Shown here piece by piece: positions 34,017-64,000 of a stretch of 64,000 nucleotides of DNA. The position numbers and the translations under genes were made by a program. Within the stretch, counting starts at the first letter, position 1. Each line of letters opens with the position of its first letter. The notes below the pieces were generated by a model that searched no databases, had not been told where the DNA came from, and saw nothing but the letters and a program-made list of their open reading frames with translations. The stretch is from Myxococcales bacterium. Lineage in GTDB: Bacteria > Myxococcota > Myxococcia > Myxococcales > UBA5297. The DNA lies in the NCBI GenBank assembly GCA_049841135.1, contig JASGHK010000008.1:147272-211271 (forward strand), given 5' to 3'.

Positions 34017-36385
34017 CTACTCCACGTCCTTGAGGACCTCCTTGAACTCGGTGTCCAGGCCCTTGAGCTCGCGGTCCTTCTGCTTGGCGAGGTTCTGGAT
34101 CTGAAGGGTCTTGTCCTGCTTGCGGGTCCAGGCCACGTCCACCAGGCCGACGTCGGCCTTGAGCACCAGGTCGTAGAACTGCCGGCGCACCCGCTTGAAG
34201 CTCTCGAAGGCGATGGAGCCGACCAGGTTCTGGGCGTTGCCGGCGACGGTGGTCACCTCGGCGTCATAGGCCTTGAGCAGCTCGGTCTCGGTTCGCACCT
34301 TCTCGCGCATCGCCTCGGCCTTGCGCTTGACCGCGTCGCGGATGGTGGCCTTGGCGTTCGCCGAGCGGGTCTGGAGGGCGGCGATGGTGGTCCGGACCTG
34401 GTCGACGTTGCTCAGCACCGCGCGGCTGGAGTCGGGCAGCTCGGTGCGCAGGCTGGCCAGGAGCTCCTTCTCCCGCTGCAGGGCCTTCTCGTAGCGCTCG
34501 CGCAAGGAAGCGTCGGCGGTGCCGGTGAGGCCCAGCTTGGCCTTCTCGTCGCGCATGGCCTTCTGCGTCACCTGCAGCTCTTCGCGCAGCCCGTCGGCGA
34601 TCTCGCGCTCCTTCTTCATGCGCTCGACCTCGTCCTTCTCGGTCTGGGCGTCGGGCTTGCGCTGGTCGCGGGTGTCGGCCAGGTACTTCTCTACCGCCGC
34701 GAGCACGGCGTACAGGCTCTCGACCTGCAGGCTCAGGCGGTACGCCTCCTGGTCGAGCCGGGTGATCTCCTGGCTCATCCGCATCCGTCGCGCCTCGAGG
34801 TCCTGCTCGCTCTTGGGCAGCGACTGGAACTGGGCGTCCAGCCGCTCGCGCTCCGCCTTGACCTGCTCGAGCTTCCTTCTGCAGGTCGCCCAGCCGCGTG
34901 CCGCCCACCAGGCGCTGCTCGACCGCGAGCAACTGCTTCTCGACCTGCGCCAGCGAGCTGTCCACGGCGTCCGCGCGGTTGAGGCCCTCCTGGTACTGCG
35001 GGAAGAAGCTCGAGCGCGCGCTTGTCCAGCACCTCGAACAGGCGGGTGGCGACCTCGTTGGACTCGATGACGCCCTTCTTGCTGGCGTCGATGTCCCCGG
35101 TCATGCGCACCGCGTCGGCGACGTCGCGGCTGGTGGTGGCCCACTTGACGGCGATGGGCGGCAGGAAGGCGGTGATGTCGAAGGTCTTGCCCGACTCGGC
35201 GATGACCTGCTGGAAGTAGCGCACCGGGTCGGGGTGCGCCTTCAGGCGGCCGTCGATGTTGTCGTACACCTCGAGGTAGGTGTTGATGACCGCGGTGTAG
35301 CTCTCGTTGGCCTCCTGGTACTTGCCCAGCTTGAGCAGCAGGTGCCCCTGGAGGATGCGAGCCTCGGGCGCGAGCACCGAGTCGGGTGCGGCGAGCAGCA
35401 GCTTCTCGCAAGCCTGGTTGGCCTTCTCGTACTCCGCGGGCCCACCGGTCTTGGCCCGCCGCACGTGCGTCCAGGCGATCTCGTAGAGCGCGTCGACGAA
35501 GTTGTCGGAGTTGTAGTCGATCTCCTGGTACCGGTCGATCGCCTCGGTGTACTTGCCGAGCTCGAAGTAGACGCGACCCAGCGACAGGTTCGCCTGCTCG
35601 TGGGTCTTCTTCTCGCGGGGGCTGTTCGCCGGAATCTTGAGCACGCGCTCGAAGGCGGCGGAGGCCGCGGCCATGTCTCCCGACTGCACGGCGAGCACGC
35701 CCAGGAAGTAGGCAGCCTGCATCGCATAGGCGCCGCCCGCGTCGGCCACCGGGCCAAAGACGGCCTGGGCGCGCGCGATCCGGTCCTTGTCCGGCACGTC
35801 GGTGCGGCGGAAGAGCCACTTGGCGTAGACGTAGGCGAGCTCGGCAGGCAGCGCGCCGCCCGGGCCCTTGGCCTGTTCGATGTACTGGTCGATGCCGGTG
35901 AACTCGTTGATGCGCCCGCTGATCTCCAGGTAGCGGCCCAGGGCGTCCCGGTAGTGGTCGCCCCGCTGGTTCATGTGCTCGCGAAAGTAGAGCCGCGCGC
36001 CCAGGTAGTTCTGCTGCTGGTAGAGCGCCTCCGCGAGCATATAGAGCGCGTTGGCGTACTCGCGCATGCCGCGGAAGGTGGCGCTGCCGACGAGGTCGTA
36101 GAAGAGGACCGAGGCCGCCTGGTAGTTGTTGAGCAGGAACTGGATCTCGGCGTCCGAGTAGCGGCGCTTGAGCGCCTCCTGCTCACCAGGCTCGTTCTTG
36201 TAGGTGTACTGCTGCTCCACCACCTGCAGCCGCGCCTCGATCTGCCCGAGGTCCTTGCGCACCCGCTCGACCTCTGCGCTCTCCGCTGCCGTGTCGACCG
36301 GCGCCTGTGGCTGCGCCGCCCTCACCTGACTGGCCGGGGCCAGCGCCGTGAGCGCGAGGACGAGCGATGCGAGGGAGAGACGCAT
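34017..36385 (-). CDS. Secreted TPR plus long C-terminal coiled-coil protein. Two or more apparent frameshifts (~34868 and ~34968).
   Basis: Signal peptide MRLSLASLVLALTALAPASQVRA. TPR-like N-terminal half. Three ORF fragments (34775.., 34264.., 34017..) join into one continuous coiled-coil. Confidence 0.55.
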
Positions 36386-36399
36386 GGACCTTGGGGTGC

Positions 36400-37194
36400 C
36401 TACTTGGTCTCGGCCGCCGCAGCGGGCTTGTCGGTGGGCGTAGCGTCCGTCGCCTTGGTGTCGGAGGCCGGAGCCTGGGAACGTCCTTCGGCGCCCTTGT
36501 CCTTCTTCATGGCGGCGTCCGTGGAGCGCTCCAAGTCATAGCGGACGGAGGGGCGGTCCTTCAGGTCGGTGGTGATGCCGCCCTTCTCGTGGCCGACCAC
36601 CTTGACCGTGGTGATCTTCCCGGGCTCGGCGTCGAAGGTGTAGCTCGACTGCACCTTGAACTTGTAGCCCTCGAGGTAGCTGAAGATGCCGAAGCCGTGG
36701 CCTCGGAACTGAAGCTTGACCGCGATTTGGTGCTGGCCAGGGACGATGCGGCCGTTGAAGATCTCGAACTCTTCCTTCTTGTCGAGGTCGCCGTCGACGT
36801 CGACCTTGGTGTAGACCGGCGCACCGTCGAGCGCGTAGGCCACCGATTCCAAGTAGAAGGAGCTGCCCATCTCGTTGCGGTGGACGAGCACGGCCTTCGC
36901 GCCCTGGCTGATGGAGCCACCGCCGAGGACCGACTCCTGCAGCAGCAGCAGGCGGGCCTTGGTCCTGAAGATCTTCTCCTTGAGGTCGTTGACCTGCTCC
37001 TCCATCGTCTTGACGCGGATGGAGAACTCCTCGTCGGAGGTCTGCGGCACGGGTGCCGCCGCGGGTGCGGCCGCCGCAGCCGGGTCGGAGGCAGGAGCGG
37101 GAGTTGCCGGAGCGGGCGTCTCACCAGCCTGGGCGAGAGTCCCCCAGGAGAGGAGAGCGATGGCTGCGAATACGGTCAGGCCTTGGGCTTTCAA
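36400..37194 (-). CDS. Secreted hypothetical protein (coiled-coil N-terminus plus beta-rich domain)
   Basis: Probable TTG start with an AAGGA RBS. Signal peptide MKAQGLTVFAAIALLSWGTLAQA. Confidence 0.4.
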   Translation of the reverse strand: MKAQGLTVFAAIALLSWGTLAQAGETPAPATPAPASDPAAAAAPAAAPVPQTSDEEFSIRVKTMEEQVNDLKEKIFRTKARLLLLQESVLGGGSISQGAKAVLVHRNEMGSSFYLESVAYALDGAPVYTKVDVDGDLDKKEEFEIFNGRIVPGQHQIAVKLQFRGHGFGIFSYLEGYKFKVQSSYTFDAEPGKITTVKVVGHEKGGITTDLKDRPSVRYDLERSTDAAMKKDKGAEGRSQAPASDTKATDATPTDKPAAAAETK

Positions 37195-37651: not shown

Positions 37652-37683
37652 GAGCCCCGCCGCGCCTCAGCGCTGCGGGGCTC
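37652..37683 (-). terminator. Hairpin 20 nt downstream of the mglA stop; possible operon terminator
   Basis: 9-bp perfect stem GAGCCCCGC…GCGGGGCTC with a 14-nt loop, followed on the transcribed strand by GTCATTTGCGG (weak U-tract). Confidence 0.3.
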
Positions 37684-37703
37684 ACCGATGAGTCGGATTT
37701 GTC

Positions 37704-39695: not shown

Positions 39696-39698
39696 GCG

Positions 39699-40364: not shown

Positions 40365-43300
40365 CTAGTCCGCCAGGCTGCGGGCGTAGTCCTCGCGCAC
40401 CGCGTCGTCGCTGAGCACGTCGCACGCCTCCGCGAGGCCCCGGCCGATCTCATCGAGGCGCCGGAAGAGCGTGGCGTCGTCGAGGGTGCCGAACCGGTCC
40501 GGGTGGAACTCGCGCGCGAGCTTCTCGTAGGCCTCGCGCACTTCGTAGCCCGAAGCATCGCGGCGCAGGCCCAGCATCTGGAAGTAGTCGCCGGCGACGA
40601 CCTGGTTGTACTTCTCGGCGACGCGGGCGAGGTCCAGGCGCGCCGCCTCCTGCGGGCTCGCGGGGCGCGCGGCCCGGCCCAGCACGGCGATCTCGACCGC
40701 GCCGGCGGCAGCCAACGAGTAGAGCACCTTGAGCGCGCCGGCCTCGTCGAGCCCGCCCTCGAAGAGCAACTCCTCGACCGTGCGCAGCCCGTCCACCATC
40801 GAGGCCAGCCGGCGCTCCCTGGCGGAGAGGCCGAAATAGTCGAGGTCGAAGTTCTGGGCGCGCGGGCGTAGCAGGGTCGCCGGGCCGCCCAGCCGGGCCC
40901 ACAGGCGGGGCGTCGAGAGCTTGCGGCGCACGCCCTCGGTCGCCATGGCGTACGGGTGCATGGGCAGCACCACCCGCTCCTCGGGCGGCGGCGCCTCGGG
41001 CGTGAAGACGTAGGCCGAGGACTCGTCCAGGAAGACGGAGTAGCAGACCTCCTGGACCCGTTTGCGGACCAGCGGGTAGAGCTTCCTGCGGCCGGATGTA
41101 GCCCAGCTCGACCATCTGCAGCGCCAGCCGCCGGGCGAGCCGCTCGTCGCTGACGCGCAGCGCGTGATGCTGGGCTGCGGTGATGAGCCCGCCCCGCAGC
41201 GCCACGTCCTCGAGGCGCTCGACGAGCGAGGTGGAGGAGGCGGCGACCAGCCGGCCGTCCTCGAACCAGAGGGTGCGCTGGGCGTCGAGCCCGGCGACGT
41301 CGACGCGGCCGGTGAGCCGCCCATCAAAGGCCTTGCACAGGAGCGCCGGCGCGTCGAGCTGGGCCAGCGTTCCGCGCGGCGGGAACGGCGGCTCGGTCGG
41401 CTCGAGTGACGGGCCGGTCTTGAACCCGGCCTCGAGATCCACCTGCTCTCCGGCGCCAGGCGTTGGCTGGGCCGGCGGCACGAAGCCGGGAGAGGTCGGC
41501 TCGTCGTTGGCCGGAGCCATCTCGGTGACCCGGAGCGGCCCTCGCCACTTCCCCGAGGCGAACGGGCGCACGTGGCGCGGATCCTCAGCGTGCGGCGGCC
41601 CCTCGTTCGCGAACTCGGGACGGGGTGCGCCGCGCAGCGGCCGGCCGGGGCGGGCTGCCTCGAGCGTCCGCCTCGCGTCCTCCTCGCGACGGCGGATCTC
41701 GGCCTGCTCGACCTCGCGCTCGGCCAGGGCCCGGCGAATCTCCACCTCGCGTGCCTCGCGCTGGCGGCGGGCGGCGTCGGCCCGGTCCTGCAGCTCCTTG
41801 CCGGTCCTCTCCGAGGATTCCTCGAGACGACGCTCCTCCTCCTCGACGGCGGCACGCTCGGCCTCGAGCTTCTTGCGCGCGGCCTCGGCCTTCTCCTTCA
41901 GCTCGCGCTGAGCCGCGGCGGCCTCCTCGATGGATCGGCGCTCCTGGGCCTCGACGGCGGCGCGCTCGGCCTCGAGCCTCTGGCGCGCTGCCTCGGCCTT
42001 CTCCTTCAGCTCGCGCTCGGCGGCTTCAGCTTGCTCGGCGACACGACGCGCCTCTTCCTCGGCGGCGGAACGCTCGGCTTCCACCTTCTTGCGCATCGCC
42101 TCGGTCTTCGCCTTGAGCTCCCGATCGGCGACGGCGGCCTGCTCGGCGACGACTCGCGCCTCCTCCTCGGCGGCGGCGCGCTCGGCTTCCAGCTTCTTGC
42201 GTGCCGCCTCGGTCTTGGCTCGCAGCTCGCGGGCCTCGGCCTCGGCAGCCTCGGCCGCGGCGCGCTGCTCGGCCTCGAGGGCCGCGTGCTCCTGCTCCAC
42301 CTTCTTGCGGGCAGCCTCGGCGCGAGCCCGAAGCTCCCGTTCGGTGGCCCGGGCCACCTCCTGGAGCTTGCGGTTCTCTTCCTCGATGGCCGCGTTCTCG
42401 GCGTCCAGCCGCTGGCGAGCGATCTCCTGGCGCCGCTTGAGCGCCTCCTCGGCGGCCCTGGCCTGCACCTCGATCTGGCGTTCCTGCTCCTCGACCGCGG
42501 CCCGCTCGGCCTCGAGGCGCAGCGCGGCCTCCTCGGCCTGGCGCTGCAGCTCCTCGCGCCGCAGGGCGAGCGCGGTGGTCTCGGCGTCTATCTTGCGGCG
42601 GGCCTCCTCGGTGCGGGCTTCGAGCTCGGCCTTCCGCGCTTCCAGCTCCGCCTCGTCCTGCGCCAGGCGCTGAGCGAGCTCCTCCGCACGACGCTCCTCG
42701 GCGTGGGCGGCCTCTTGGAGCTCCTCGACGCGCAGCTTCTGCGCCTCCTCGCGGGCCTTCACCTCGGCGATCTTCCGGTGCAGCTCCTCCGCGGCGCCGA
42801 CCAGGGCGTCCGCCTGCTTGGCCTCGGCCTCGAGCCTCTTCTGGGCCGCGTCGATCTTCTTCTTGGCCTCGTCGCGCCGGCGCGCGAGGTCCCTGGCGTT
42901 GGCCTCGACCTGCTCGCGCTCCGCGGTCGCCTTGCGCTCCTCCTCCTCGGCGGCCTGCTTCAGCTCCTCGATGCGGCGGCGGTGCTGCTCCTCGGTCGCG
43001 CGAGCCACCTCGACCCGCTCGCGGTGCTCCCCAGCGAGGCGTTCCAGCTCCTCGATGCGGCGGATGTCGTCGTCGGCTCGCTTCTTCTCGACCTCCACCT
43101 GGCGGAGGGCCTCTTCGCGGCGCTCGGCGATCTCCGCGGCCTCGATCTCGAGCAGGGCGCGCTCCTGCGCGGCGCGCTGCTCCTCGTCGAGGGCCGCCTG
43201 CTTCAGGTCGGCGATGCGCCGCCGTTCCTCATCCTCGCGGGCGCGGATCTCCTCGACCAGGCGCTGCTGCTCTTCGGCTTCCCGTCGCAGCTCCTCGGCA

Positions 43301-46300
43301 CGAACCGCCTCTTCCTCCACCCTTCGCTGTGCGCCCTCGGCCTTCTGCTGGGCCTCCTCGCGACGGAGGGCGAGCTCCTGGGCCTCGGCCTCGAGACGCT
43401 CGCGCTCGGCGAGCGCGCGGCGCTCCTCCTCCTGGGCAACGAGGTTCGCGTCCGCCAAGGCTTGGAGCTCGCGCTCGCTCTCTTCCTTCCGGGCCTGGGC
43501 CAGCTCGCGCAGCTCGGCAGCTTCGCGCTCGGCCTCTTCGCGGCGGCGAGCAGTCTCGGCGGCCTCGGCCTCCAGCCGCTCCCGCTCTTCGCGAGCCGCG
43601 CGCTGGGCCTCCTCGGCTGCCCTGCGCAGCGCCTCGAGCTTCTCTCGCTCCTCGGCCGCGACGCGTTCACGCTCTAGCTGCGCCTCGCGCTCCGCCCTCT
43701 CCAGCGCTTCTCTCTCGGCGACCTGCCTTGCCTGCTGCTCGGCGGCCAGACGCTCCAGCTCCGCCTCCTCGCGAGCCTGGTCCTCCGCCGCCACTCGCTG
43801 GAGCTCTTCCTTGGCCTTGGCTTCCGCCGCGACTCGCTCCGCTTCTTCCGCCGCCTGGCGCTCCTGCTCTGCCCGCTCGGCCTCTTCCTTGGCCTTGGCT
43901 TCCGCCGCGAGCCGCTCTGCTTCTTCTGCCGCCTGGCGCTCCTGCTCTGCCCGCTCGGCCTCTTCCTTGGCCTTGGCTTCCGCCGCGAGCCGCTCCGCTT
44001 CTTCTGCGGCCAGCCGCTCCTGCTCTGCCCGCTCGGCCTCTTCCTTGGCCTTGGCTTCTGCCGCGAGCCGCTCTGCCTCTTCCGCCGCCTGGCGCTCCTG
44101 CTCCGCCCGCTCGGCCTCTTCCTTGGCCTTGGCTTCCGCCGCGAGCCGCTCTGCCTCTTCCGCCGCCTGGCGCTCCTGCTCTGCCCGCTCGGCCTCTTCC
44201 TTGGCCTTGGCTTCCGCCGCGAGCCGCTCCGCTTCTTCTGCGGCCAGCCGCTCCTGCTCTGCCCGCTCGGCCTCTTCCTTGGCCTTGGCTTCCGCCGCGA
44301 GCCGCTCCGCTTCTTCTGCGGCCAGCCGCTCCTGCTCTGCCCGCTCGGCCTCTTCCTTGGCCTTGGCTTCCGCCGCGAGCCGCTCCGCTTCTTCTGCGGC
44401 CAGCCGCTCCTGCTCTGCCCGCTCGGCCTCTTCCTTGGCCTTGGCTTCCGCCGCGAGCCGCTCCGCTTCTTCCGCGGCCCGGCGTTCCTGCTCTGCCCGC
44501 TCGGCCTCTTCCTTGGCCTTGGCTTCCGCCGCGAGCCGCTCCGCTTCTTCTGCGGCCAGCCGCTCCTGCTCTGCCCGCTCGGCCTCTTCCTTGGCCTTGG
44601 CTTCCGCCGCGAGCCGGTCTGCCTCTTCCGCGGCTCGGCGTTCCTGCTCTGCCCGCTCGGCCTCTTCCTTGGCCTTGGCTTCCGCCGCGAGCCGCCCCTG
44701 CTCAGCGCGCTCAGCCTCTTCCTTGGCACTGGCCTCGGCCGCAAGCCGTTCGAGCTCCGCGTTCTCGGCAGCTTCCTCCTCGGCGACCTTCCTCGCTGCC
44801 TCCTCGGCCGCCGCGCGCTCCTGGTCGGCTTTCGCTGCCTCGGCCAGCTGCTTCGCTTTCGCCTCGGCCTCGCGAAGCTCAGTCTCCGCCGCCAGCTCTG
44901 CTTCCTTCTCCGCCACGTCGGCAGCGCGGCGCGCCTCCTCGCGCGCCTTGCGTTGTGCATCCTCCCAATCCAGCTCGGGGGCCTCATCCCTCACCGGCGT
45001 CGACCGCTTCGGCGGATCGGGCAGCAGTTCAGGGACCGCTTCGTCCGTCGCCTTGGCCAATTCCGTAGCGAGACCGTCGTCGGAAGCAGGCTCTGCAGCC
45101 GACGCGGGCTCCGAAGACCAGCTCAACTCGTCGGCCAGCGGCTCTTGCGCACTCGCAGTGTCCAGCCTCGGCGACTCGGCCGGCGGCTGCTCCGCCGCTC
45201 CGTCGCCGAACAACGAATCCGCCAGCGGCGCCGACGCATTCGTCTCCGGCGGCGGCTCCGTCACCAACGAGTCGGTGAGCGGCGCGGTCTCCGGCGCTGG
45301 CTGCTCCGCCACTCCATCGCCGAACAGCGAATCCGCCAGCGGCGCCGACGGGTCCGTCTCCGGCGGCGGCTCCGTCACCATCGAGTCGGTCAGCGGTGCC
45401 GACTCCGGCGCCGGCTGCTCCGCCACCCCATCGCCGAACAGCGAATCCGCCAGCGGCGCCGACGGGTCCGTCTCCGGCGGCAACTCCGTCACCAGCGAGT
45501 CGGTCAGCGGTGCCGACTCCGGCGCCGCCTGCTCCACCACCCCATCGCCGAACAACGAATCCGCCAGCGGCGCCGACGGGTCCGTCTCGGGCGGAGGCTC
45601 CGTCGCCAGCGAGTCGGTCAGCGGCGCCGACTCCGGCGCGGGCTGCTCCACCACTCCGTCGCCGAACAGCGAATCCGCCAGCGGCGCAGAATCGTCGATG
45701 GGCGGCGGCTCGGTGAGCAGGTCATCCGCAGCCAAACCAGCGCTCGCCGCCTGTTGAAGGAGCTCGGCCGAAGACACGGCCGGGGCTCCCTCTGCCGGCG
45801 GCGCCGCGAAGAGCCCCTCGGCAAGCGGTGCCGATTCGCCGGCAACCGGGTCCGTCGGCGCGTCGCCGAAGAGGGTGTCCGCCAGCGGCGTGGAGGAGTC
45901 ATCAGCCGCGGGCCGGGGCCCGGCTGGAGGAGGCTCCGCGAGGGGCGAATCGCCCGGCTCGGACAGCCGCCAGGCGGAGGCGACATCGTCCTCGTCGAGC
46001 GCTCGCTGCACCGCTTCCAGGAGCGCCTGGCCGTCGAGCGGCAGGTCGACGACCGCCGCCTCGGGAGCTTCGGAGATGCCATGACCCAGCAGGACGAAGC
46101 GGGTCGCGTCGCCGCGCGGGTGATTGCGGATCTCCTGGTAGATGGCCGCGCCACGCCCGCCGTCCACCTCGGGAGCGAGGACGACCACCGCCGGAGCCAG
46201 GTCTCCGAAGGTGATGACCGCGTCGGCGGCGTTGGTGACCAAGACGCTGTCGACGCCCTCGCGCTGGAGGACGCGCTTCGCGGGGGCGATGACCGCGATG

Positions 46301-46332
46301 TCATCGTGGACGAGGAGGACGGGGCCGGCCAT
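40365..46332 (-). CDS. Giant (~1990 aa) protein: N-terminal receiver-like domain, acidic 38-aa repeats, very long E/R/A-rich coiled-coil (26-aa repeats), C-terminal DnaJ (J) domain. Apparent frameshift at ~41095.
   Basis: N-terminus [28 protein letters not shown]… is REC-like. Repeats [26 protein letters not shown] x11. C-terminus [32 protein letters not shown] (HPD motif) lies in the 40365..41855 frame, joined at …GYIRPQ | KLYPLVRK. Confidence 0.6.
43790..44700. repeat. Near-perfect 78-bp tandem repeat array (~11 copies), coding for the 26-aa coiled-coil repeats
   Basis: Unit CCTGCTCTGCCCGCTCGGCCTCTTCCTTGGCCTTGGCTTCCGCCGCGAGCCGCTCCGCTTCTTCTGCGGCCAGCCGCT recurs with 1-3 substitutions per copy. 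Confidence 0.8.
45190..45720. repeat. 114-bp tandem repeats (~4.5 copies), coding for acidic 38-aa repeats ([38 protein letters not shown])
   Basis: The protein shows four to five near-identical 38-aa units. The DNA is correspondingly periodic. Confidence 0.65.
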
Positions 46333-50947: not shown

Positions 50948-51066
50948 GGCGCCCCCCCCAGGGGTCGGCCGGACGCACCGGCACCTTCACCCCGCCACCA
51001 CGAGGTTGCGCTTTCCGCACAGCCGCTCCACTCGCCCGTTCGTGAGCGAGCGAGCAGCCGAGACAG

Positions 51067-53067
51067 CTACTCGCCGTCCAGCTCGCCCTCCTGGACGGCC
51101 CGAACCGCTGCGGGCTCGAGGTCGGGCAAGGGCTGGATGGGGACGACCCGGGTCGGCGCATCCACCGGCGCCGGGGGGAGCGCCGCGAGCTGAGCCGGCG
51201 AGGTGAGCGCTCCATAGGGGACGGCCATCAGCATCTGCCGACCGTCGGCCCCGGTGCCCGCAGGGACGTAGACGACCGGCCAGGGCGTGACCGGGGTTGC
51301 CGGCGTCGCGGCGGGCGCGGGGACCGAGGAGACGGGGACAGCCGGCGGGGAGCCCGACTGGCGAGCCACGTCCGAGAGGTCGACGACGCGCGTGGTGAGC
51401 ATCACGTGCGGATCGGCCGGGTCGAGCTGCCTCCAGCGCAGCTCCTGCTCCGGGCGGCCGTACGCCCGCGAGATCGCCCGGCGCATGCCGAGCTCGGTGC
51501 AGAGCACCGGGCGGCAGCGGCGCCCGACCGCAAAGCCCACGGCGTCGCGCTTGGCGAGGTCGGCGGGGTCGGCCATCGCGACGTAGACCCAGCCGTCCTT
51601 GAGCGCGACCGGCAACGCCAGGAGCTTGAGCGCGGTCTCCTGGGAGAAGCGCTCCAGGAAGCTCCTTGGGCGGCTCGAAGCCGAGCAGTTTCTCGTCGGT
51701 CACGAAGGGGACCGCGAGCTGGCTGGCGAGGGTCGCGAGCACCTCGCGGGCCGGCGCCAGGTCGAGCCTCGATGGCCCACTCCCCCACCCGGCCCCCTTC
51801 CCGGCGCTGCCGCTGGAGGATGGTCTGCAGCTGGCTCGCGGTGATGACCCCGCGCTCGACCAGCATCTCGCCCAGGCGCTGGCGCTTGGCCGGACCGCCA
51901 GGAGGAGCTGGGGCAACCTTGACCGCCGACGACGACGGCTTCGGCGCGGTGCGGCTGGGCGGAGCAGCGGCGTCCTCCCGCAGCGGGCGGCCCGCGCCCT
52001 TGAGCTCAGTGTCCAGCCGGACCCGGTCGGGGAAGAGCCGGCGCACGCGCGCCGCCAGTTGCTCGGGGCCGACCCGGCTTCCCCGCCGGGAGAGGACCTC
52101 CCGCAGCGACTCGGCGAGCTGGCGGGCGTGCTCGTAGCGTCCTGACGGGTCCTTGGCGAGCGCCCGCCGCAGGATGGGCATCAGCTCGGAGGTGCCTTCC
52201 GCCGGCTCGCCCAGGGCGGCGTCGTCATAGGCGATGAGCTCGCCGATGGCCTGGGCGGCGCTGCCTCGTTGCTTGAACAGTGGCCGTCCGGCGAGCAGCT
52301 CCCACAGGAGCGCGCCGGCCAGGAAGAGATCCGACCGGTGGGTCGGCTCGCGCCCCGCGGCGAGCTCGGGGGCGATGTAGCCGAGCTTGCCCTTGATGAG
52401 CCCAACCTGGGTCCGCTCGCGGCCGTCGGCGCGCGCCACCCCGAAGTCGGCGAGCTTGACGATCCCGTCGGAGGAGACGAGCACGTTCATCGGGTTCACG
52501 TCGCGGTGCACGACGTGCAGCGGCGTGCCCTGAGGGCCCTTGGCGTCCCAGGCATACGCCAGGGCGTCGGCGACGGCAGCCACGACGTACACCGCCTCGT
52601 CCAGGCTGAGCGGGTCGCCGGCAGCGCGGGCGGCGTTGACCACGCGGCGAAGGTCGGACCCGTCGACCAGCTCCATCACCAGGTAGGGCTGCCCACCGGT
52701 GACCCCGTAGTCGAGCACCTGGACCACGTTTTGGGTGCGAAAGGTAGGAGCAGAGCTTGGCCTCGCGCAGGAAGGCCTCGGCGCTCTCAGGGTCGCGCGC
52801 AAGCTCGGGCAGCAGACGCTTGATGGCCACCGGCTTCTCGAAGCCCCCCGTGGCCACCCGCTTGGCCAGAAAGACTTCCGCCATTCCACCTGCAGCCAGC
52901 TTTCGGATGACTTGGTATTGCCCCACGCCCCGCCTCCCCGCTCGCTCGCCTGGAGGGCAAGTTGGCGTCCCGGTCGCGATGGAGAAGCGCCTCCCTGGGG
53001 CGTCCGAGCGCCTGTACGGGGCCCTGGACTCCTTCAAGTTCGTGATCGATCGGGATCTATCGCCCAT
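51067..53067 (-). CDS. Ser/Thr protein kinase fused to a C-terminal T2SSE_N/MshEN-like domain. Three or more apparent frameshifts.
   Basis: Kinase subdomains I-II (LAAGGMAEVFLAKR…VAIKRL), then after a 1-nt indel in a T4 run at ~52730: HRDVNPMNVLV, DFG, APE. C-terminal GspE_N-like sequence (LGEMLVERGVITASQLQTIL…LPVALKDGWVYVAMADPADL…RAISRAYG) is spread over three frames (switches at ~51765 and ~51655). Confidence 0.6.
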
Positions 53068-53217
53068 GCGCGGCAAGAAAGCGGGCAACGGCTGAGGATG
53101 CCCTCGCCGGTCTGCCGCTGTCTTCAACGTTGAGAACGACAGCCCGATGCTCCCGGCCACCGGGCGTGGAGCGGGCCGCGCGGGCGCTCAGCGGAGCCCA
53201 CCGGTCCCGGGCCCCGG

Positions 53218-56200
53218 TCAAGGCATGGGGACGTCCACCTCGACCGACTGCTCGCCGACACCGGCGATGTCGACGTCCGTGCTCGCCTGGGTGCGCTTCT
53301 TTCCCGCCCCGCAGTTGACGAGCAGGTGGTAGCGCCCGGCGTCGATCGCCTTGAACGTCAACGTCCCGCTCACGGAGCGCGCCGAGGGCGGCAGGCTCAC
53401 CGAAGCGCCCTGGCCCGGGCCGGGCACGAAGACGAGCATGCCGCCGCAGGAGTCCGAGCCAGCGCCGGCCCCCTTGAGGGTGGCGACCAGGGTGGCCCCG
53501 TCCGCTTTGGGGCGCAGGTCCAGGGTCGCCTCGCCACCTTCGGGGACCTCCACGTTCGCCGTGATGCGCTCGCCCTGATCCGCGCCGGCCGGAGAGGTGG
53601 TGCTGACGCGCCAGGTTCCTCCGGCCAGCCCTCCCAGCTCGAAGGTGCCGTCCTCGCCGACCTCGGCGATGGCGCGGCCGCCCCCCTTGCTGCTGGCGAA
53701 GAGCAGCGCCCGCTGGGGCCTGCCGGCCCGGTCGAGCACGCGGCCGCGCAGCGTCGCGCCACGGGAGAGGACGGCCGAGACCTCGTAGATGCCGGGGACG
53801 ACGTCGATGAAGGTGCTCTTGTAGCGCGGGTGGTCCAGCGTCAGCCGTGTCATCCCCTCCTCGATCTGCATGGAGAAGGCGCCGGACTCGTCGGTCACGG
53901 CCGCCGCCGCGGGTCCCGAACGGCCCCGGCCGAGGACCATGCCCGAGGGTCGGGCCTCGCCGAGGTTCACGCGCACCCCGGCGATGGGCGAGCGGGTGTT
54001 CGCCTCGAACACGTGACCCGAGACCTTCCGGCCTTTGGTGAGGACAATCCTCCCCGCGTCGTAGTCGGCGTCCTCCATCACGGTGAAGCTGCGCACCCCC
54101 GGCGCGAAGCCGGGCGCAGTGACCGTCAGCGCCATCATCTCCGAGCGCCGGATGGGCACCGCGAAGCGCCCTTCGGGATCGGAGAATGCCTCGCCGTTGG
54201 CCTCGAAGGAGGTCACCGGGAAGCCCTGGACGTCGAAGACCTGTCCGCGCAGCGCCGACAGGCCCGGGAGCACGACTCGCACGTCCTGGGCGCCGGCCCG
54301 CACGCCGCTCTCCTCCGCGCGCTTGTGGAGCCGCTTGGTCGCAGCCAGCCGCCAGGTCCCCGGGCCCAGGCCCTTGACCGTGAAGGTGCCGTCCGCCGCC
54401 GAGGTGGTCGACCGGAACGAAGGCCTTCGCAGCGTCCCGGTGATCTCGCCGCCGCCCTCCTTCATCAGCGTCACCCGGGCCTCGGGGACGGGACGACCGG
54501 CGGCGTCGACCGTCGTCCCGGCGATGGAGAGCGTGGGCGCGAGGACGAGGCGGACCTCGGCCTCGGCGCCGGGCAGCACCTCGACTCGCGCGGTCGCGTA
54601 GGCCGTCGCGGCGCCCAGCGGATCGCCCTGGGGTGTCGCCTCCAGCAGCCAGGGGCCCTCGGCCAGGTTCGCGAAGCGGAACTTGCCGGTCGCGTCCGCC
54701 CGAACGCTCTGGCGCCCGCCCCGCCCCGCCGCGCCTTCGCCGCGGCGGTCGCGGGGGGCGGAGAGCTCGACGCTGGTCCCCGTGACGGGAGCCCCGCGCT
54801 CGTCGACCACCTCGCCCTTCACCGCGCCCGCGGTCAGAAGCTGCAGCTCCACCTTCTCGTCGGGCGCGTGGACGGTCTGGGGCTTGTGCCCGAAGCCCTC
54901 CTTCGCGGCGGTGAGGACGTAGGCGCCCGCCCCGAGCCCCTCGACGCGGAAGGCGCCATCGTGCCCTGAGCGCGCGGTCGCCCTGCGACGCTGCAGCACG
55001 CTCTCGACCAGCGCCTTCTTCGTGGCGCCCGCGGCCGGCATCGCCGCTTCCTGACGGACGGTGATCTCCACCGCCTCCGCCGGCCGTCCCTGGGGATCGA
55101 CCACGCGGCCGGCGAGCAGCGACTGCGGCTCCAGCGCGAAGTTGGCCTGCCCGTTCCCGCCGGCGGCGACCTCGACCAGCACGACGGCCGACTCGGCGAA
55201 GGAGGGCGCCGTGGCCTGCAGCGAGTAGGGCCCGGGCGCCGCGGAGGTCACCGACCAGGTGCCGTCCGCGGCGCAGGGCGCGACCCGCCGCGCGATGGGC
55301 AAGCCGGGCACGCCGGAGACGGACGGACGACGCAGCCAGTAGCTGACCTGGGCGCCCGGGACCGGCTTGCCGTCCGGACCATGCACGGTGCCGTGGAGCG
55401 AGGTCGAGACGCCGAGGTCGAGGACGAGGTCTTCCTTGCGCTCGCCGGCCCCGAGCACCACGCCTTCGGAGACCGAGCGGCCTTCGGCCTGGGCGGTGAC
55501 GACCACGCCCCCGCCGGCGCCGAAGTCGGTGAAGGAGAACCGTCCGTCGGCGTCGGCGCGCCCCTCCACGTGACACCGCGCGGCCTCCACCCGGACGTAG
55601 GCCCCGGGCGACTTCGCTCCGCCGGAGATGACCATGCCCGCGACCACCGCCTGGCTGTCGAGCCGCACGTCGAACTCGGTCTCGTCCGCGCCCAGCTCGT
55701 CCGTCGCGCGCAGGTCGGCCCAGGACGCGACCACGCGCCAGGCGGAGCCGGGCGGCACCGGGCCGATCGCTGCGCGCCCCGACGGGTCCACGCTGCCCTC
55801 GAAGAAGCGGCCGAAGTCCGCGGAAAGCGCGAGCACCGTGACTCCCCCCGCGGCACCGGAGGGGGCTTGGACGGTGCCGGTGAGCACGACGCCCGGCTGC
55901 ACCGGCACGTCGACACCCTGGGAGTCGACCGCGACCCCAGCGAGGTGGCCGACGCCCGCGGCCGACTCGGCCCACAGGTCCACCCGGGTCCCGGCGGCCA
56001 GACCGGCGAGCGCGAAGGAGCCGTCGTCGCCTGCGTGGGTCAGCGCCAGGAACTGGGACGCGCTCCGGTGCGCTCGGAGGACGGCATCGCTCCTGGCGCT
56101 CAGGGCCTGGCAGGTGCACGCAGCCGAGGAGAGCCCGCACTCTCCGTCGCACGGGCAGGACTGCTCCTCGCGTTCGGGAGCGGGCGCGGTCCAGGCCGGG

Positions 56201-58200: not shown

Positions 58201-58509
58201 ATGCTGGTCCTGCTGGTCGACGTCCACGTCAAGCCCGAGCACCGCGACGCCTTCATCCAGGCCTCCATCGCCAACCACCAGGGCTCGCGCAAGGAGCCGG
58301 GGAACCTGCGCTGGGACTTCCTGCAGAACGAGGAGGACCCCAACCGCTTCACGCTCTACGAGGTCTACCGGGACAAGGCGGCGCTGGAGGAGCACCAGAA
58401 GCAGCCGCACTACCTGGAGTGGAAGAAGGTGGTCGAGCCGTGGATGGCGCAGCCCCGCTCGCGGCAGAAGCTCTCCAACCTGGCGCCGCGCGACGACTCC
58501 GGCTTCTAG
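58201..58509 (+). CDS. Antibiotic-biosynthesis-monooxygenase (ABM) domain protein
   Basis: MLVLLVDVHVKPEHRDAFIQA…FTLYEVYRDKAALEEHQKQPHY is an ABM/YgiN-like ferredoxin-fold pattern. Confidence 0.65.
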   Translation: MLVLLVDVHVKPEHRDAFIQASIANHQGSRKEPGNLRWDFLQNEEDPNRFTLYEVYRDKAALEEHQKQPHYLEWKKVVEPWMAQPRSRQKLSNLAPRDDSGF

Positions 58510-58519: not shown

Positions 58520-59694
58520 ATGACCTTCGACCTCGCCACCGCCCAGCGCATCGTCTTCGGACGCGGCACCTTCGAGCAGCTCGGAGAGCTCGCCTCGCCC
58601 TTCGGCAAGTGGGCCCTCCTCGTCGCCGGGACTCACCTGTCGCGCACCGGCGAGCTCGCCCGCGCCGAGTACCTGCTGTCCAAGAAGGGCGTCGCGGTCG
58701 AGACGCTGCTCGTTCACGGCGAGCCCGAGGTCCCGGTCGTCGACGACGCGGCCGGGAAGGCGCGCACCTGCGGCTGCGAGCTGGTGGTCGGCATCGGCGG
58801 CGGCTCGGCGCTGGACGTCGCCAAGGCCGCGGCGGCGCTGGCCACGAGCGGCGGCTCGGTGCGCGAGTACCTGGAGGGCGTGGGCACCGGACGCGCGCTG
58901 CGCGCCCGCCCCCTGCCCTTCCTCGCCGCCCCGACCACCGCCGGCACCGGCAGCGAGGTCACCCGCAACTCGGTCGTCGGGTCCAAGGCCGAGGGGTTCA
59001 AGAAGAGCATCCGCAGCCCGATGATGTTGCCGGCGGTGGCGCTGGTCGACCCGGCCCTCACCGACTCGAACCCGCCGGCGCAGACCGCCTCCAGCGGCCT
59101 CGACGCGCTGACCCAGCTCATCGAGCCGTTCGTCTCCACGAAGGCGATGGCCCTGACCGACGGGCTGTGCCTGGAGGGGATTCCGCAAGGCGCGTCCCGC
59201 GCTGCCGCGGGCCTTCGCCAACGGGGCGGACACGGCCGCGCGAGACGATTCTGGCGATGGCGAGCCTGCTCGGCGGCTTCTGTCTGGCCAACGCCGGGCT
59301 GGGCGCGGTGCACGGCATCGCCGCGGCGCTGGGCGCCCGGTTCGAGATGCCGCATGGGCTCGCCTGCGCCTGCACGTTGGCGGCAACGGTGGAGGTCAAC
59401 GTCCGAGTGCTGGAGACGAGAGCTCCATCGAGCCCGGCCCTCGGGCGCTACGCCAGGATCGGCGAGGCCCTGTGCGGACGCGCCTTCGCGACCGAGGCCG
59501 AGGCACGAGCGGCGGCGGTCAAGGACGTCCGCGCGCTCTGCGAGGAGCTGCGGGTCCCCAAGCTCTCTGGCTACGGCGTGACCGAGGCGAAGCTCGCCAT
59601 GCTGGTGGGCGAGTCGAGAGGCTCTTCGATGAAGAGCAACCCCATCGCGCTCGAGGACCCGGAGATCGAGGAGATTCTCCGGGCGTCCCTATGA
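58520..59694 (+). CDS. Iron-containing alcohol dehydrogenase with two closely spaced apparent indels (~59178, ~59235)
   Basis: Fe-ADH motifs GIGGGSALDVAKA, GTGSEVT, LGAVHGIA. The reading frame goes 1 to 3 to 2 within ~60 bp (…GLCLEGI | RKARPALPRAFANGADTAAR | ETILAMASLLGG…). Confidence 0.7.
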
Positions 59695-60254: not shown

Positions 60255-60379
60255 CCGGTCGCGGACGGCGCGCAAGGACGTCCCATCGGCGAGCTCGTCC
60301 GTCGAGCCCTTTTGAGCCCTTCCTCCGAAACCGCGACTCCCTCCCGGGATGGCTCGGTTTCATCGCGGAGATCCGGCTC

Positions 60380-61114
60380 CTAACGTGCCGCCGGCCCGTC
60401 GAGCACGACCTTGGCCTCCTCGACCCTTCCCTTGCTCAGCAGCGACGCCACCCGGATGACTCGGTGGATGGGCCGGGTGATGCCCCGAGCGATGAGCAGG
60501 CCGACCGAGAAGCCGCCGAGGATGCTGAGGACGAGGTTGGCGACCAGCAGCCGGATGGTCTTGCCCGAGAGCTGGTTCATCTCCTCGATGAGCGCGAGCT
60601 GGCGCGCCGCGAGCTCGTCGGAGTAGCTCCTGAGGGCGCTGATCAGCTCCTCCGAGGCACGGTCGTACGCATCCATGACTCGGTTTCCCTGGTCCCAGTC
60701 GGCGAGGTAGGCGTGGAACATTCGCTCGCCGGTCGCGTCGAGGGCCTCCAGGCGCGAGGTGAGGGCCTTCAAACGTGCCTGCGCCGCCGAGTCCTCCGCA
60801 GAAAGCCGGCGCAGCTCGTCGAGGTCGGCGAGCGCGTGCCGGAAGCTCGGCTTGGCCTCTTCCCGGACGACCTCGTCCGACCGTGTCAGTGAAGCGTCCG
60901 TGTAGAACTGCCAGACGTTGGCGACGTTCAGCTGCAGGTCCTTGGCTTTGGAAATCCTGGCATTGACCGCGTCGAGCTCCTCCTTGGAGTCGACGAAGTC
61001 CAGGACCTCCAGAAGGATGAGGAGCGAGAACCCCGACACCACGGCGATGACCAGGCCAAACCCCAGAAGGATTTTGGTTTGGATCGACGCGTTTCGAAGA
61101 AGGTGGCCGAGCAC
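60380..61114 (-). CDS. Membrane sensor fragment: TM1, periplasmic helical sensor, TM2, HAMP, with no output domain (possibly truncated)
   Basis: GTG start. TM helices ILLGFGLVIAVVSGFSLLIL and IRLLVANLVLSILGGFSVGLLIA. HAMP start RGITRPIHRVIRVASLL. The ORF stops ~20 aa later. Confidence 0.45.
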   Translation of the reverse strand: MLGHLLRNASIQTKILLGFGLVIAVVSGFSLLILLEVLDFVDSKEELDAVNARISKAKDLQLNVANVWQFYTDASLTRSDEVVREEAKPSFRHALADLDELRRLSAEDSAAQARLKALTSRLEALDATGERMFHAYLADWDQGNRVMDAYDRASEELISALRSYSDELAARQLALIEEMNQLSGKTIRLLVANLVLSILGGFSVGLLIARGITRPIHRVIRVASLLSKGRVEEAKVVLDGPAAR

Positions 61115-61264
61115 GGGCGCTGTCCCTTCTGGGTGATGACGCCTTCGAGCGTCGACACGCTTCGCCGCGGCGATAAGGGACTGGGGTCGCCGCGCCCCAG
61201 TGCCGGCGATTGACCCCGCTCGTCGGCTCACGTTGAATGCTCGGGCGTCCAGCAAGGAGTCTTT

Positions 61265-62137
61265 GTGCCCAGGTTGTCGTCTCTCGTCGCGGTGGTGTTG
61301 GCCGTCCTCGCAGCGTTCCCGGCTCACGGCGCCACGCCCGCAAGCAAGAAGAAGGTGGCGGTCCTGGAGGTGCAGACGCTCGGCACCTTCGACCCCAAGG
61401 CCGTCCAGGGCCTGTCGATGGTGGTGGTCTCCGAGGCGGAGAAGGCGCCGTTGAAGGTCGTCGCCGGCACCGACCTGAGCGCGCTCATCGGCTTCGAGCG
61501 GCAGAAGCAGATGCTGGGCTGCACCGAGAGCTCCTGCCTGAGCGAAGTCGGCGGCGCGCTCGGGGTCGAGTACCTCCTCTCCACGCAGGTGTCGGAGGTC
61601 GGCGGGGTCTGGCTGCTGACGACCACGCTCCTCGACGTGCTCAGGTCGGTCTCGCTCAAGCGCGTGAGCCTCAAGACCGAGCAGGTGCGCTCCCTCGTCG
61701 ATCTCGCCCAGCAGGCGACCCGGGAGGCCCTCGCCGCCCTCCCCGGCAGCAACCCCGCGCCCGCGGCGCCCCCCGCAATCTCCGTCTCGAACCCGGCCTC
61801 GCCCTCTTCCATGTCGGGCACCCGTGTCGCCGGCATCGCGCTGGCCGTCGCCGGAGGGGCCGCGCTCGCCGGAGGCGGCGTCTGCGGAGTGCTGGCCCTG
61901 GGCCAGTTCGACGAGGCCAAGCGCGCCGCCACCGACCAGTCCTTCCAGGACGCCAAGCGATCGGGAGGTACCGTGGCGCTGGCGGCGGACGTGCTCTACG
62001 GGGTGGGCGCCGCCGCCGCCGTCACCGGGATCATCCTCGCGGTCCTCGGCGGGACCAGCCACGCCACCCCTGCCGTCACCTTCGCGCCCTCGGCGGCGCC
62101 GGGTGGAGCGGGGCTGGTGGCTTCGGGAAGCTTCTAG
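61265..62137 (+). CDS. Secreted protein with an alpha/beta N-domain and a Gly/Ala-rich hydrophobic C-terminus
   Basis: AAGGAG RBS and GTG start. Signal peptide …AVLAAFPAHGA. Pattern KKVAVLEV…GADYLL-like. Confidence 0.45.
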   Translation: MPRLSSLVAVVLAVLAAFPAHGATPASKKKVAVLEVQTLGTFDPKAVQGLSMVVVSEAEKAPLKVVAGTDLSALIGFERQKQMLGCTESSCLSEVGGALGVEYLLSTQVSEVGGVWLLTTTLLDVLRSVSLKRVSLKTEQVRSLVDLAQQATREALAALPGSNPAPAAPPAISVSNPASPSSMSGTRVAGIALAVAGGAALAGGGVCGVLALGQFDEAKRAATDQSFQDAKRSGGTVALAADVLYGVGAAAAVTGIILAVLGGTSHATPAVTFAPSAAPGGAGLVASGSF

Positions 62138-62211
62138 CAAGAGCAGCGGGCAGGACTCGTGCGTCGGCGGCCCAGGGCCCTGCGCGTGCGAGCGCATCCA
62201 GGAGAGCAACC

Positions 62212-64000
62212 ATGAGAAGGCTCGTCGTCGGTCTCGCCCCGCTCCTCGCCGCCGTCGGACTCGCCGGCTGCGAGCTCATCACCGACTTCGCCCATCTCTC
62301 CGGACCGGACGCGAGCAGCCCCGGCGGAGACGACGCGGGGATCCGTCACGACGCGTCCGAGGACGACGCCGGGAGCGACGCGGGAGGATTCGGCTGCGGC
62401 AGACACGGGCGCCAGCAGCCCCGACGCCACAGCGAGCCCCTCCGACGCCGGCCAACCCGACGGCTGCACGCCTTTGACGCCTTCCGAGTTCTGCGAGTCC
62501 CAGGGCGCGGTCTGCGGGCAGGTCTCCGGCACCGACGGGTGCGGGCAGCGGCACAGCAACGAGTCCTGCGGCAGCTGCGCTGCGCCCCAGGTCTGCGTCG
62601 ATGGCTCGTGCAAGGGCTGCCTGGCGTCGGGCACCGACTGCTCCCAGAGCAGCGAGTGCTGCGACGGCCTGGGCTGCAAGGAGGCGAAGTGCGCCGCGGG
62701 CTGTGGCGGCGACGGCGCGACCTGTTCCTCCCAGGCCGACTGCTGCTCCTCGGCGCCGTATTGCGTCGGCGGCGCCTGCCGGGCGAGCTGCCCCGGGTTC
62801 GGCGATGCCTGCTCGAAGACCACGGACTGCTGCCCCGGCGGCGAGTGCACCAACGGGCACTGCTGCGCGGGCGGCCAGACCTTCTGCGGCTCGGCCTGCG
62901 TCGACGTCTCGAGCAACCACGACCACTGCGGCACGTGCGGCCACGCCTGCGGCACCTCGCAGACGTGCGCCTCGAGCTTCCTGTGCCTGTCCCGCGGGCG
63001 CCCGGGCGCAGGGAACGAATTGCGCCGAAGCCGACTGCCAGGACACCAAGGACAACGACGGCGATGGCGGCGCCGACTGCGCCGATCCCGACTGCCAGGA
63101 TCAAGTCTGCGGTGCCGCCGCGCGCTGCCTCGCCGACGGGTCCTGCGGCTGCCGGGACGCGGCCTGCGGCAGGGACGCCGACTGCTGCTCTGCGAGCCCC
63201 TACTGCGCCCTGGGGGCGTGCGCGGCGTGCGTGCCCAAGGGTGCCGCCTGCACGTCCACCAGCCAGTGCTGCAACTCGATGACCTGCGCCTCCGGAGCGT
63301 GCTGCCCTGGCACCAACTCACCTTGCGGCTCCTCGAACGACTGCTGCCCGGGCGCATTCTGCGTGAACCACCAATGCAGCCAGACCTGTGGCAACTCCGG
63401 GGCCTACTGCAACGACAGCTCCGACTGCTGCGACGGCCTGGGCTGCGACCCCACGTCCCTGCAGTGCGAGGCCACCTGCGTCAGCGAGACCTACCCCTGT
63501 GCGGCGACCGCCCCCTGCTGCGCGGGCCTCTACTGCGTCGGCACCGAGTGCTCGGCCACCTGCGGAGGCAAGGGCCAGTCCTGCGTCGGCCCCGGCGACT
63601 GCTGCAGCGGCTCCTGCGTGGGCGGCCTCTGCGTGTGCGCGACCGCCGGCCTCGGCTGCATCGCCGACGGCGACTGCTGCGCCCCCACCAACGAGTGCAA
63701 GAGCGCCTTCTGCGGCAGCGGCACCTGCGGCGAGGTGGACCGCGCCGCGACGGCCACCTGCGCCGGCGGACAAGGGACGTGCCAGGCGGGCCTGTGCAGC
63801 TTCCAGCTCTCGGTCAGCATCAGCGGGTCGCAGGTCCAGGTGACGGACCTGGACACGCACACGCTGCTCGCCACCTGCCCCAGCGCGTCGTGCGCGAACC
63901 TGCTCGTCCCCCGGGGACACCGGGTCATGGTGGTGAACACCCGCGCGGACACTGCGCTCGCCTCGGCGACCGTGAACGGAGCTGCGACCGCCTGCACCTC
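62212..64000 (+). CDS. Lipoprotein made of Myxococcus-type cysteine-rich repeats (…DCCxGxxC…). Continues past the right edge. Apparent frameshifts at ~62390 and ~62980.
   Basis: Lipoprotein signal MRRLVVGLAPLLAAVGLAGC. Repeated modules CSSQADCCSSAPYCVGGAC / CSKTTDCCPGGEC / CNDSSDCCDGLGC recovered across three frames. Confidence 0.55.

Follow-up and report, generated by a model that had tools for sequence, protein, structure and literature searches.

The question raised by this 64-kb window (the whole stretch of DNA analysed, a piece of a metagenome-assembled myxobacterial genome) is why unrelated genes on both of its strands shift frame at one recurring short sequence. An earlier note had claimed that the 9-mer GAGCTTCCT always coincides with a +1 frameshift, repaired by deleting one C. 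Four genes, on both strands, do shift frame exactly at GAGCTTCCT with one extra base each, but the window holds five copies rather than four (1.03 expected from shuffles), and the fifth (16551-16559, minus strand) is genuine, reading in frame as GAG AGC TTC CTC TAG where a Wza-like polysaccharide export gene ends. All 12 of 12 orthologs finish in VPESFL or VPESVL, the SLBB_2 profile of this gene is complete without any repair, and an identical protein is annotated as intact in the source MAG (MGC4122088.1). The answer lies instead in a wider set of single-base insertions, +1 only, bound to the two motifs GAGCTC and GATC and absent from orthologs.

Single-base insertions in the window

The window carries 13 single-base insertions, all +1 and all gene-breaking (about one per 5 kb), against which no deletion was found within its coding sequence. 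They fall in recA (one), a Ser/Thr kinase gene (three), an Fe-alcohol dehydrogenase gene (two), a 789-aa TPR gene (two), a Cys-rich lipoprotein gene (two), a giant REC/DnaJ gene (one) and two further genes (one each). Seven had been missed previously (15126, 27527, 51768, 52729, 59181, 59249 and 62390), four of these in GATC. GAGCTC accounts for only 0.76% of insertion slots but has eight of the 13 in it or next to it (P=1.4e-14); GATC, with 1.8% of slots, has four (P=7e-5), and one lies in an A/T run (52729). The two palindromes united hold 12 insertions in 2.6% of slots (P ~1e-18).

Ten events double the A/T pair adjoining the outer G/C, turning GA into GAA or, on the opposite strand, TC into TTC, with GAGCTTC or GAAGCTC as the products of GAGCTC and GATTC or GAATC as those of GATC, while in two a C or G is gained within GAGCTC or right next to it. 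All but one (27527) extend a run by one base, 11 of these from one base to two within the palindrome. A classical homopolymer-length error was rejected on this count, with only 1/13 events, that at 52729 (TTT to TTTT), in a run of at least three.

Penetrance is low (GAGCTC, 11% of sites affected; GATC, 2%) and depends on the flanks: GAGCTC followed by CT, the most error-prone context, is affected in 4/21 copies as compared with 2/119 otherwise (P=0.005). The units are GAGCTC and GATC and not the 9-mer, GAGCTTCCT being an error product and not the target. In the window 25 of 32 GAGCTTC copies and 52 of 56 GATTC copies are genuine in-frame sequence, so unbroken GAGCTTCCT sites, which had been put forward as a refutation, would be no valid one; intact palindromes provide the proper test.

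Comparison with relatives and repair of the broken genes

Five relatives with short-read-derived genomes (L001-L005) were used for DNA and protein comparison. When the window is aligned to the closest relative (~39 kb), the uncompensated indels within genes are seven +1 events, all at GAGCTC or GATC, and the extra base is absent from the relatives at 7/7 sites they cover; a metagenome scan yielded no hits. In orthologs each gene is one ORF, of 789, 664, 457 and >1900 aa, and the repaired genes give gap-free homolog alignments with junction peptides identical to those of orthologs. We found no stop codons or other decay in the broken genes; downstream of the breaks, Pfam domains are complete and identity stays at the level of orthologs. 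At 29451, 35007, 59181 and 59249, where an adjacent base differs in the relatives, the original sequence would presumably have been the intact palindrome.

On the plus strand, recA is split by an extra A at 15126 (GA[A]TC, 15124-15128, inserted base in square brackets), the intact form being AAG ATC GGC; once repaired, RecA gives one Pfam match (profile 1-261/262) spanning the junction at residue ~200. The next four genes lie on the minus strand. The 457-aa gene (26708-28031) is split by an extra C directly beside GAGCTC ([C]GAGCTC, 27527-27533), where L002, L004 and L005 read GAGGGT-GAGCTC; this is the sole uncompensated gap in the gene, and repair yields exactly the L002 protein sequence EEPELTLEDLPDRFVKM. 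In the 664-aa TPR/coiled-coil gene (28432-30450) the extra base at 29451 lies in GAGCT[T]C followed by GAGCTC (29446-29452), one base more than in the same three relatives (repaired QEAAKELELAVKYAP, L002 QEAAKELETAVRYAP), and the choice of the base to remove follows the pattern of the other events.

The 789-aa TPR gene (34018-36400) carries two insertions. The first, an extra T at 34873/34874, is in GAGCT[T]CCT (34869-34877), for which L002 DNA reads CTCGAGC-TCCTTCTGCAG; deleting the T gives exactly the L002 peptide LQKELEQVKAERE. The second, 133 nt upstream in gene orientation, is an extra base at 35006/35007 in GA[A]GCTC (35005-35011), where L002, L004 and L005 are each one base shorter (repaired LDKRALELFPQYQEG, L002 LDKRSLEVFPQYQEG). 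Of two further frameshifts that had been suspected in a GAGCTTC context, that near 29450 was correctly placed, at base 29451, whereas that given as ~34968 is truly this one within GAAGCTC. The giant REC/coiled-coil/DnaJ gene (40368-46332) has an extra T at 41083/41084 in GAGCT[T]CCT (41079-41087); L001 and L002 read GGGTAGAGC-TCCTGCGG with identical flanks, and the L002 protein reads GYIRPQELYPLV.

The minus-strand Ser/Thr kinase gene (51070-52926) is broken three times. Repair of GAGCT[T]CCT on the gene strand (51656-51664), in the MshEN domain, yields an MshEN match of 3-89/90 across the junction and a gap-free alignment to L008, L009 and L010, with codon usage preferring CTC (498) over CTT (59). 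An extra base at 51768, 108 nt upstream, lies in GAGC[C]TC, that is GAG[G]CTC on the gene strand (51764-51770), and its repair, GEWAIELDLAPAREV, aligns gap-free with the same homologs. The third insertion (52729-52732; AAAA on the gene strand), in the catalytic domain, is the only event outside both palindromes; the repaired YLSHPNVVQVLDYG is gap-free against homologs reading LQHANVVQVFDLG and restores a Pkinase profile of 1-254/263.

The remaining events are on the plus strand. Two GAT[T]C insertions, 68 nt apart, interrupt the Fe-alcohol dehydrogenase gene (58520-59692): an extra T at 59181 (59179-59183), where L001 lacks the T and reads GGCA-TCCGCAAGG, and one downstream at 59249 (59247-59251), where L001 reads GACGA-CCTGGCGATGG; the repaired protein matches ADH_Fe_C at 1-193/194. 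In the Cys-rich lipoprotein gene (from 62212 past 64000) an extra T at 62390 in GAT[T]C (62387-62391), close to the 5' end, cuts the signal peptide off from the Cys-rich repeats. This frameshift was predicted by the GATC rule before its detection (after three-frame reading), and its call is based on a lipoprotein signal peptide continuous with the downstream Cys-rich frame and not on orthologs. In the Cys-rich (Stig1-type) repeats, GAGCT[T]CCT (62974-62982) contains one extra base, and the repaired CGTCGHACGTSQTCASSSCACPAG is gap-free against repeats in P0241 (CGACGHACGSAQSCSSGTCTCPSG) and P0243.

These comparisons bear directly on the idea that GAGCTTCCT is itself an error-prone methylated motif with an extra C in every copy, repaired by deletion of that C. 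The 9-mer is over-represented, a +1 frameshift accompanies four of its five copies and no context is hit more often than GAGCTC followed by CT, all as such a motif would predict, but one copy is genuine and nine other insertions, four of them in GATC, lie outside the 9-mer. The extra base, moreover, is T (A on the other strand), as the relatives read GAGC-TCCT and their proteins fit only the T-deleted repair; the K-containing repair proposed earlier, with two of its sites placed ~10 nt from their correct positions (34869-34877 and 41079-41087), has no match to the L002 peptides LQKELEQVKAERE and GYIRPQELYPLV. In its specific form the idea is refuted.

Origin of the insertions

We favour, at a probability of roughly 0.7, the explanation that the consensus of this presumably long-read Myxococcales MAG carries systematic single-base insertions at GAGCTC and GATC, likely linked to DNA modification. 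That the insertions are an artefact of some kind can be held with high confidence; that the artefact is tied to DNA modification is probable, and a nanopore platform seems somewhat likelier than another. The core of the earlier proposal, in which systematic errors of reads, basecalling or polishing arise, possibly at a methylated motif, is thus supported, with two methyltransferase palindromes as the sites. The frameshifts are almost certainly not biological, and the recA, kinase, TPR, dehydrogenase, REC/DnaJ and lipoprotein genes are almost certainly intact in the organism.

GAGCTC and GATC would both be methyltransferase targets in this organism, and their modified bases would distort the raw signal, be it pore current or polymerase kinetics. 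With the worst flanks, chiefly a CT after GAGCTC, the majority of reads would gain an extra base, and read-based polishing would be unable to remove an extra base present in the majority. The effect of the CT flank agrees with a signal governed by a k-mer that extends past the motif, and the source MAG contig of 1,652,613 bp, which carries MGC4122088.1, implies long reads. That recA is among the victims, that single genes hold two to three insertions and that no decay is seen likewise count for an artefact. The myxobacterium Archangium gephyra carries m4C at GAGCTC and possesses a dam homolog (PMC5441343); GAGCTC is an m5C target as well (PMC11954522). In nanopore assemblies consensus errors cluster in methylation motifs, most copies of which are unaffected (PMC6591954, PMC10687267, PMC12392509), and nanopore-only soil assemblies with contigs >1 Mb have needed frameshift correction (PMC12818350). 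Against this explanation, no methyltransferase gene lies within the 64-kb window, penetrance is low, the insertion at 52729 falls outside both motifs, and we found no literature report of insertion errors at methylated bases in SMRT sequencing.

A context-dependent sequencing or polishing artefact that involves no DNA modification is less likely, though it deserves serious consideration. A/T would be over-called in k-mers that include GAGCTC and GATC, possibly through the handling of run lengths and homopolymers by the basecaller, assembler or polisher. Consistent with this, run extension by one base is the rule, one event lies in a plain T-run outside both motifs (52729), flanking context matters and penetrance is low (11% and 2%). 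Published methylation-linked nanopore errors are, in addition, chiefly mismatches, whereas here there are insertions only. Both words, however, are perfect palindromes, typical of Type II methyltransferase systems and classical targets of these enzymes, and since few hexamers (1.6%) and tetramers (6%) are palindromes, a coincidence is unlikely. Far commoner TC/GA contexts are spared, and methylation of GAGCTC is documented within the Myxococcales (PMC5441343).

It is very unlikely that the insertions are real mutations, either scars of error-prone end-joining after restriction cuts at GAGCTC and GATC or signs of recent pseudogenisation. Their positions do match those at which enzymes cleave these sites (GAGCT^C, GAG^CTC and GA^TC), and bacterial Ku/LigD end-joining is known for leaving single added nucleotides. 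Pseudogenes would not be expected to show an unmixed lesion spectrum of +1 insertions, without deletions or nonsense mutations, together with the constraint that is kept downstream. Gene-breaking hits at this rate, with recA included and some genes struck two to three times, would leave thousands of genes dead genome-wide, which is incompatible with a cell abundant enough to yield a 1.65-Mb contig. Similarly improbable is self-restriction, in which a restriction-modification system that was lost or is invading leaves cuts to which Ku/LigD-type repair adds one nucleotide, or its milder variant, in which the artefacts report a non-canonical modification at GA(GC)TC; if self-restriction scars were true, they would record a genome-wide, motif-targeted frameshift mutagenesis event in an environmental population.

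Programmed +1 ribosomal frameshifting or transcriptional slippage, which would decode the frameshifts in vivo and to which their recurrence at a recurring sequence might point, had been discounted in the earlier note and is refuted by orientation and ortholog data: on the gene strand three GAGCTC events read as GAGCTTC and three as GAAGCTC, GATC events are split 1 to 3, the affected genes are unrelated and show neither a slippery run nor a stimulatory element, and in orthologs a single uninterrupted frame, without the extra base, encodes each of these proteins.

Consequences for the MAG

As the affected genes are almost certainly intact, the insertions carry little biological weight. Since a gene is broken about every 5 kb, annotating the MAG would yield false pseudogenes in the hundreds to thousands, and its completeness and pathway calls would come out too low. 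The errors are predictable, which makes a motif-aware, homology-guided fix possible, in which one T/A is dropped from GAGCTTC or GATTC only at frame breaks; blanket deletion of a C, or 'correction' of all copies of GAGCTTCCT, would add wrong residues and break the genuine end of the Wza-like gene. The error pattern also suggests, indirectly, modification of both palindromes by this uncultured myxobacterium.

Relation to known error systems

With prfB-type programmed frameshifting the insertions share a +1 change at a recurrent short sequence, but they do not belong to this class, as their orientation is mixed, they are not conserved in orthologs and no shift-prone codon context is present. The homopolymer indels of long-read MAGs, addressed by proovframe and Homopolish, are the usual cause of frameshifted genes in such assemblies; like the insertions described here they are one-base errors that split ORFs and are found and repaired through homologous proteins (PMC12818350; bioRxiv 10.1101/2021.08.23.457338). 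They concern long runs and are often deletions, whereas here 12/13 events lie in palindromes, 11 take a single base to two, no deletion occurs and only 52729 is of the classical type.

The nanopore errors at methylation motifs (Dcm CCWGG and Dam GATC, as well as GCAGC/GCTGG, fixed by Modpolish) resemble the present insertions in occurring at short methyltransferase-target motifs. They survive read-based polishing, as the present insertions would, and, as here, ignore gene strand and affect only part of the motif copies, with modulation by the neighbouring bases (PMC6591954, PMC10687267, PMC12392509). We found no description in the literature of an error pair at GAGCTC and GATC in a high-GC Myxococcales MAG. 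The published errors are mainly substitutions, while those in this MAG, where methylation of GAGCTC and GATC is putative, are solely insertions, mostly of a doubled A/T by the outer G/C.

Single-base insertions in the window

Thirteen frameshifts were found in the window, all 13 of them +1 and none a deletion. A Ser/Thr kinase carrying MshEN at its C-terminus has three of them; a 789-aa TPR gene, an Fe-alcohol dehydrogenase and a Cys-rich lipoprotein gene have two each; and recA, the giant REC/DnaJ gene, a 664-aa TPR gene and a 457-aa gene have one each. Housekeeping genes are struck repeatedly without other signs of decay. Because the window is ~69% GC, spurious long ORFs are plentiful, and true frameshifts were told from gene boundaries using a self-trained codon model and a check of each same-strand frame switch. 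This model took the place of a fixed-parameter GC3 Viterbi segmentation, which assigned wrong labels to antisense frames and to the first 13 kb; open-frame overlap intervals and a position-by-position +1/-1 scan were likewise discarded as too noisy at this GC, where gene boundaries also scored and two close +1 shifts passed for one -1. After repair, that is removal of the extra base to rejoin the split frame, choosing the longest ORF gave spurious frames in the dehydrogenase and Cys-rich genes, and explicit starts were used for both.

The same-strand frame switches at 9916, 14417, 16182, 17265, 30451, 34020, 36403, 48191, 49379 and 59680 simply mark the passage from one gene to the next, and GAAGCTC at 58467 was rejected as a frameshift, being a gene-end effect with no gap against the homologous DNA L001. 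At ~660 (within ~620-700, minus strand) the codon model passes from the frame of the Toprim gene to that of a downstream ORF beginning MDRNEGLRLL...; this change may be an ordinary boundary, two overlapping genes or one more frameshift, and an intact GATCGATC lies just upstream. The comM-like gene is closed at 14405-14416 by a perfect 10-nt palindrome, GGAAGCTTCC, which has AAGCTT, not GAGCTC, and leaves the frame undisturbed. Positions 1-13500 have a lower GC content (0.64-0.66) and fit the host codon model poorly; with a Toprim primase-like gene (370-1971, minus), a serine resolvase (~4164-4784, plus), an Abi_2 abortive-infection gene (5275-6351, minus) and a collagen-like repeat protein (11546-12196, plus), this region resembles a mobile or defence island that was inserted beside the comM/yifB-like gene (end near 14423) and recA.

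Comparison with relatives

A scan of genome contigs found one relative. The closest, Myxococcales bacterium SMAG_U4749, is a short-read soil MAG whose contig DASXVQ010000025.1 (L001 and L002) is 81-86% identical to the window at the nucleotide level; L004 and L005 come from two more distant MAGs. Split ORFs of the window are single intact genes in the relatives (789, 664 and 457 aa). Over ~39 kb of alignment only seven uncompensated indels lie within genes, each a single-base insertion in the window (27527, 29451-53, 34873, 35006, 41083, 59181 and 59249), and all remaining uncompensated gaps are intergenic or at gene ends. A pattern for the 41084 site accepting both alleles matches L001-L003 locally, L003 being JGI 3300035523 contig Ga0376481_001705, and gave no matches in a collection of metagenome contigs that covers JGI incompletely.

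The earlier note had tied every occurrence of the 9-mer GAGCTTCCT, of which it counted four, to a +1 frameshift repaired by deleting one C. The window holds five copies, at 16551 (minus), 34869 (plus), 41079 (plus), 51656 (minus) and 62974 (plus), against 1.03 expected from dinucleotide-preserving shuffles, and two of the positions first given were ~10 nt off. Six-frame translation places a frame change, each time one base too many, exactly at four of the five. The copy at 16551 reads GAG AGC TTC CTC TAG and closes a Wza-like export gene; since the protein terminates in VPESFL or VPESVL in 12 orthologs, one of them annotated and 100% identical (MGC4122088.1), this copy is genuine and no error. 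Nor is the extra base C: for two copies of the 9-mer the sequence of the relative is CTCGAGC-TCCTTCTGCAG and GGGTAGAGC-TCCTGCGG, and therefore the extra base is T and the intact form GAGCTC. The ortholog proteins LQKELEQVKAERE and GYIRPQELYPLV are identical to the T-deleted repair, while deleting C puts K for E, and codon usage is consistent with T deletion (CTC 498 vs CTT 59, GAG 565 vs GAA 63, ATC 223 vs ATT 10).

For sites lacking a close ortholog, Pfam matches run uninterrupted over each repaired junction, covering profile positions 1-261 of 262 for RecA, 1-193 of 194 for ADH_Fe_C and, in the repaired kinase, 1-254 of 263 for Pkinase and 3-89 of 90 for MshEN. The kinase also aligns gap-free at all three junctions with three homologs of the same architecture; among metagenome proteins its homologs reach 50% identity at most. 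The Cys-rich gene has no Pfam match and only weak, Stig1-type homologs, against whose repeats the repaired junction CGTCGHACGTSQTCASSSCACPAG is gap-free, and its 62390 insertion was located by the GATC rule with purely internal support, a signal peptide continuous with the repeat frame.

The kinase gene region (50969-53239) has no counterpart in L001, which carries ~230 bp in its place, and the gene thus distinguishes close lineages by its presence or absence; its best homologs elsewhere are only ~50% identical. The giant gene (40368-46332, minus strand, ~1990 aa) has an apparently receiver-like N-terminus, judged by eye, 114-nt (38-aa) tandem repeats with GAATC at 45215, 45329, 45443, 45557 and 45671, and a very long Glu/Ala/Arg/Lys coiled coil followed by a DnaJ-like C-terminus. 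Its neighbourhood is conserved in relatives: def, HhH-GPD, MglB-like (Robl_LC7), MglA-like (Arf) and two large TPR genes.

Sequence context of the insertions

With the extra base in brackets, the insertions are GAGCT[T]C, equal to GA[A]GCTC on the opposite strand (n=6), GAT[T]C, equal to GA[A]TC (n=4), and single cases of GAGC[C]TC, [C]GAGCTC and a lengthened T-run; 10 of 13 events double the A/T pair that adjoins the outer G/C in palindromes of the form GA...TC. Eight of the 13 lie in or beside GAGCTC, which offers 0.76% of insertion slots (P=1.4e-14), and four in GATC, with 1.8% of slots (P=7e-5; P about 1e-18 combined). Most copies of these palindromes are spared (8 of 70 GAGCTC and 4 of 234 GATC sites affected), and the window's copies of GAGCTTC and GATTC are mostly genuine (25 of 32 and 52 of 56). 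With CT directly after it, GAGCTC is affected in 4 of 21 cases, against 2 of 119 in other contexts (Fisher P=0.005). The 9-mer is therefore what the most frequent error context yields, which is why it was noticed, and not the target motif that it was taken for.

Origin of the insertions

Insertions that are +1 only, bound to palindromes, independent of orientation (3:3 at GAGCTC relative to the genes), absent from relatives and repeated in housekeeping genes without decay have the profile of a systematic consensus error, as the earlier note had proposed, and not that of mutation or recoding. They are judged to be a sequencing or assembly artefact whose general type is known, its restriction to insertions at GAGCTC and GATC being somewhat unusual. 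The contig carrying MGC4122088.1 ('MAG: Myxococcales bacterium') is 1,652,613 bp long, implying long-read sequencing. Both palindromes are probably methyltransferase targets, whose modified bases would distort the raw signal such that one base too many is called where the flanks are unfavourable. In support, m4C methylation of GAGCTC is documented for the myxobacterium Archangium gephyra, in which a dam homolog is also present (PMC5441343), and in other bacteria the site is a target for m5C (PMC11954522).

A basecaller or polisher bias dependent on context only is the less probable but still serious rival to modification, because the precedents are mostly of substitution type, our literature search for SMRT sequencing turned up no insertion errors linked to methylated bases, and the window contains no methyltransferase gene; against it, both affected words are perfect palindromes. 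Real mutations, such as scars left by end-joining after restriction (the known cleavage positions do fall on the insertion slots), are very unlikely given one gene-breaking event per 5 kb, recA included, and no deletions. Programmed frameshifting, already dismissed in the earlier note, is excluded by the mixed orientation and by the lack of conservation in orthologs.

The artefact is of low biological interest; its practical use lies in correcting the MAG, and it offers a testable hint about the MAG's methylome. Published modification-linked errors are mostly substitutions, in contrast to the insertions only of the window. In favour of the modification link, nanopore consensus errors do gather in methylation motifs (PMC6591954, PMC10687267), with the majority of motif copies spared (PMC12392509), and frameshift correction was required for nanopore-only soil assemblies with >1-Mb contigs (PMC12818350).
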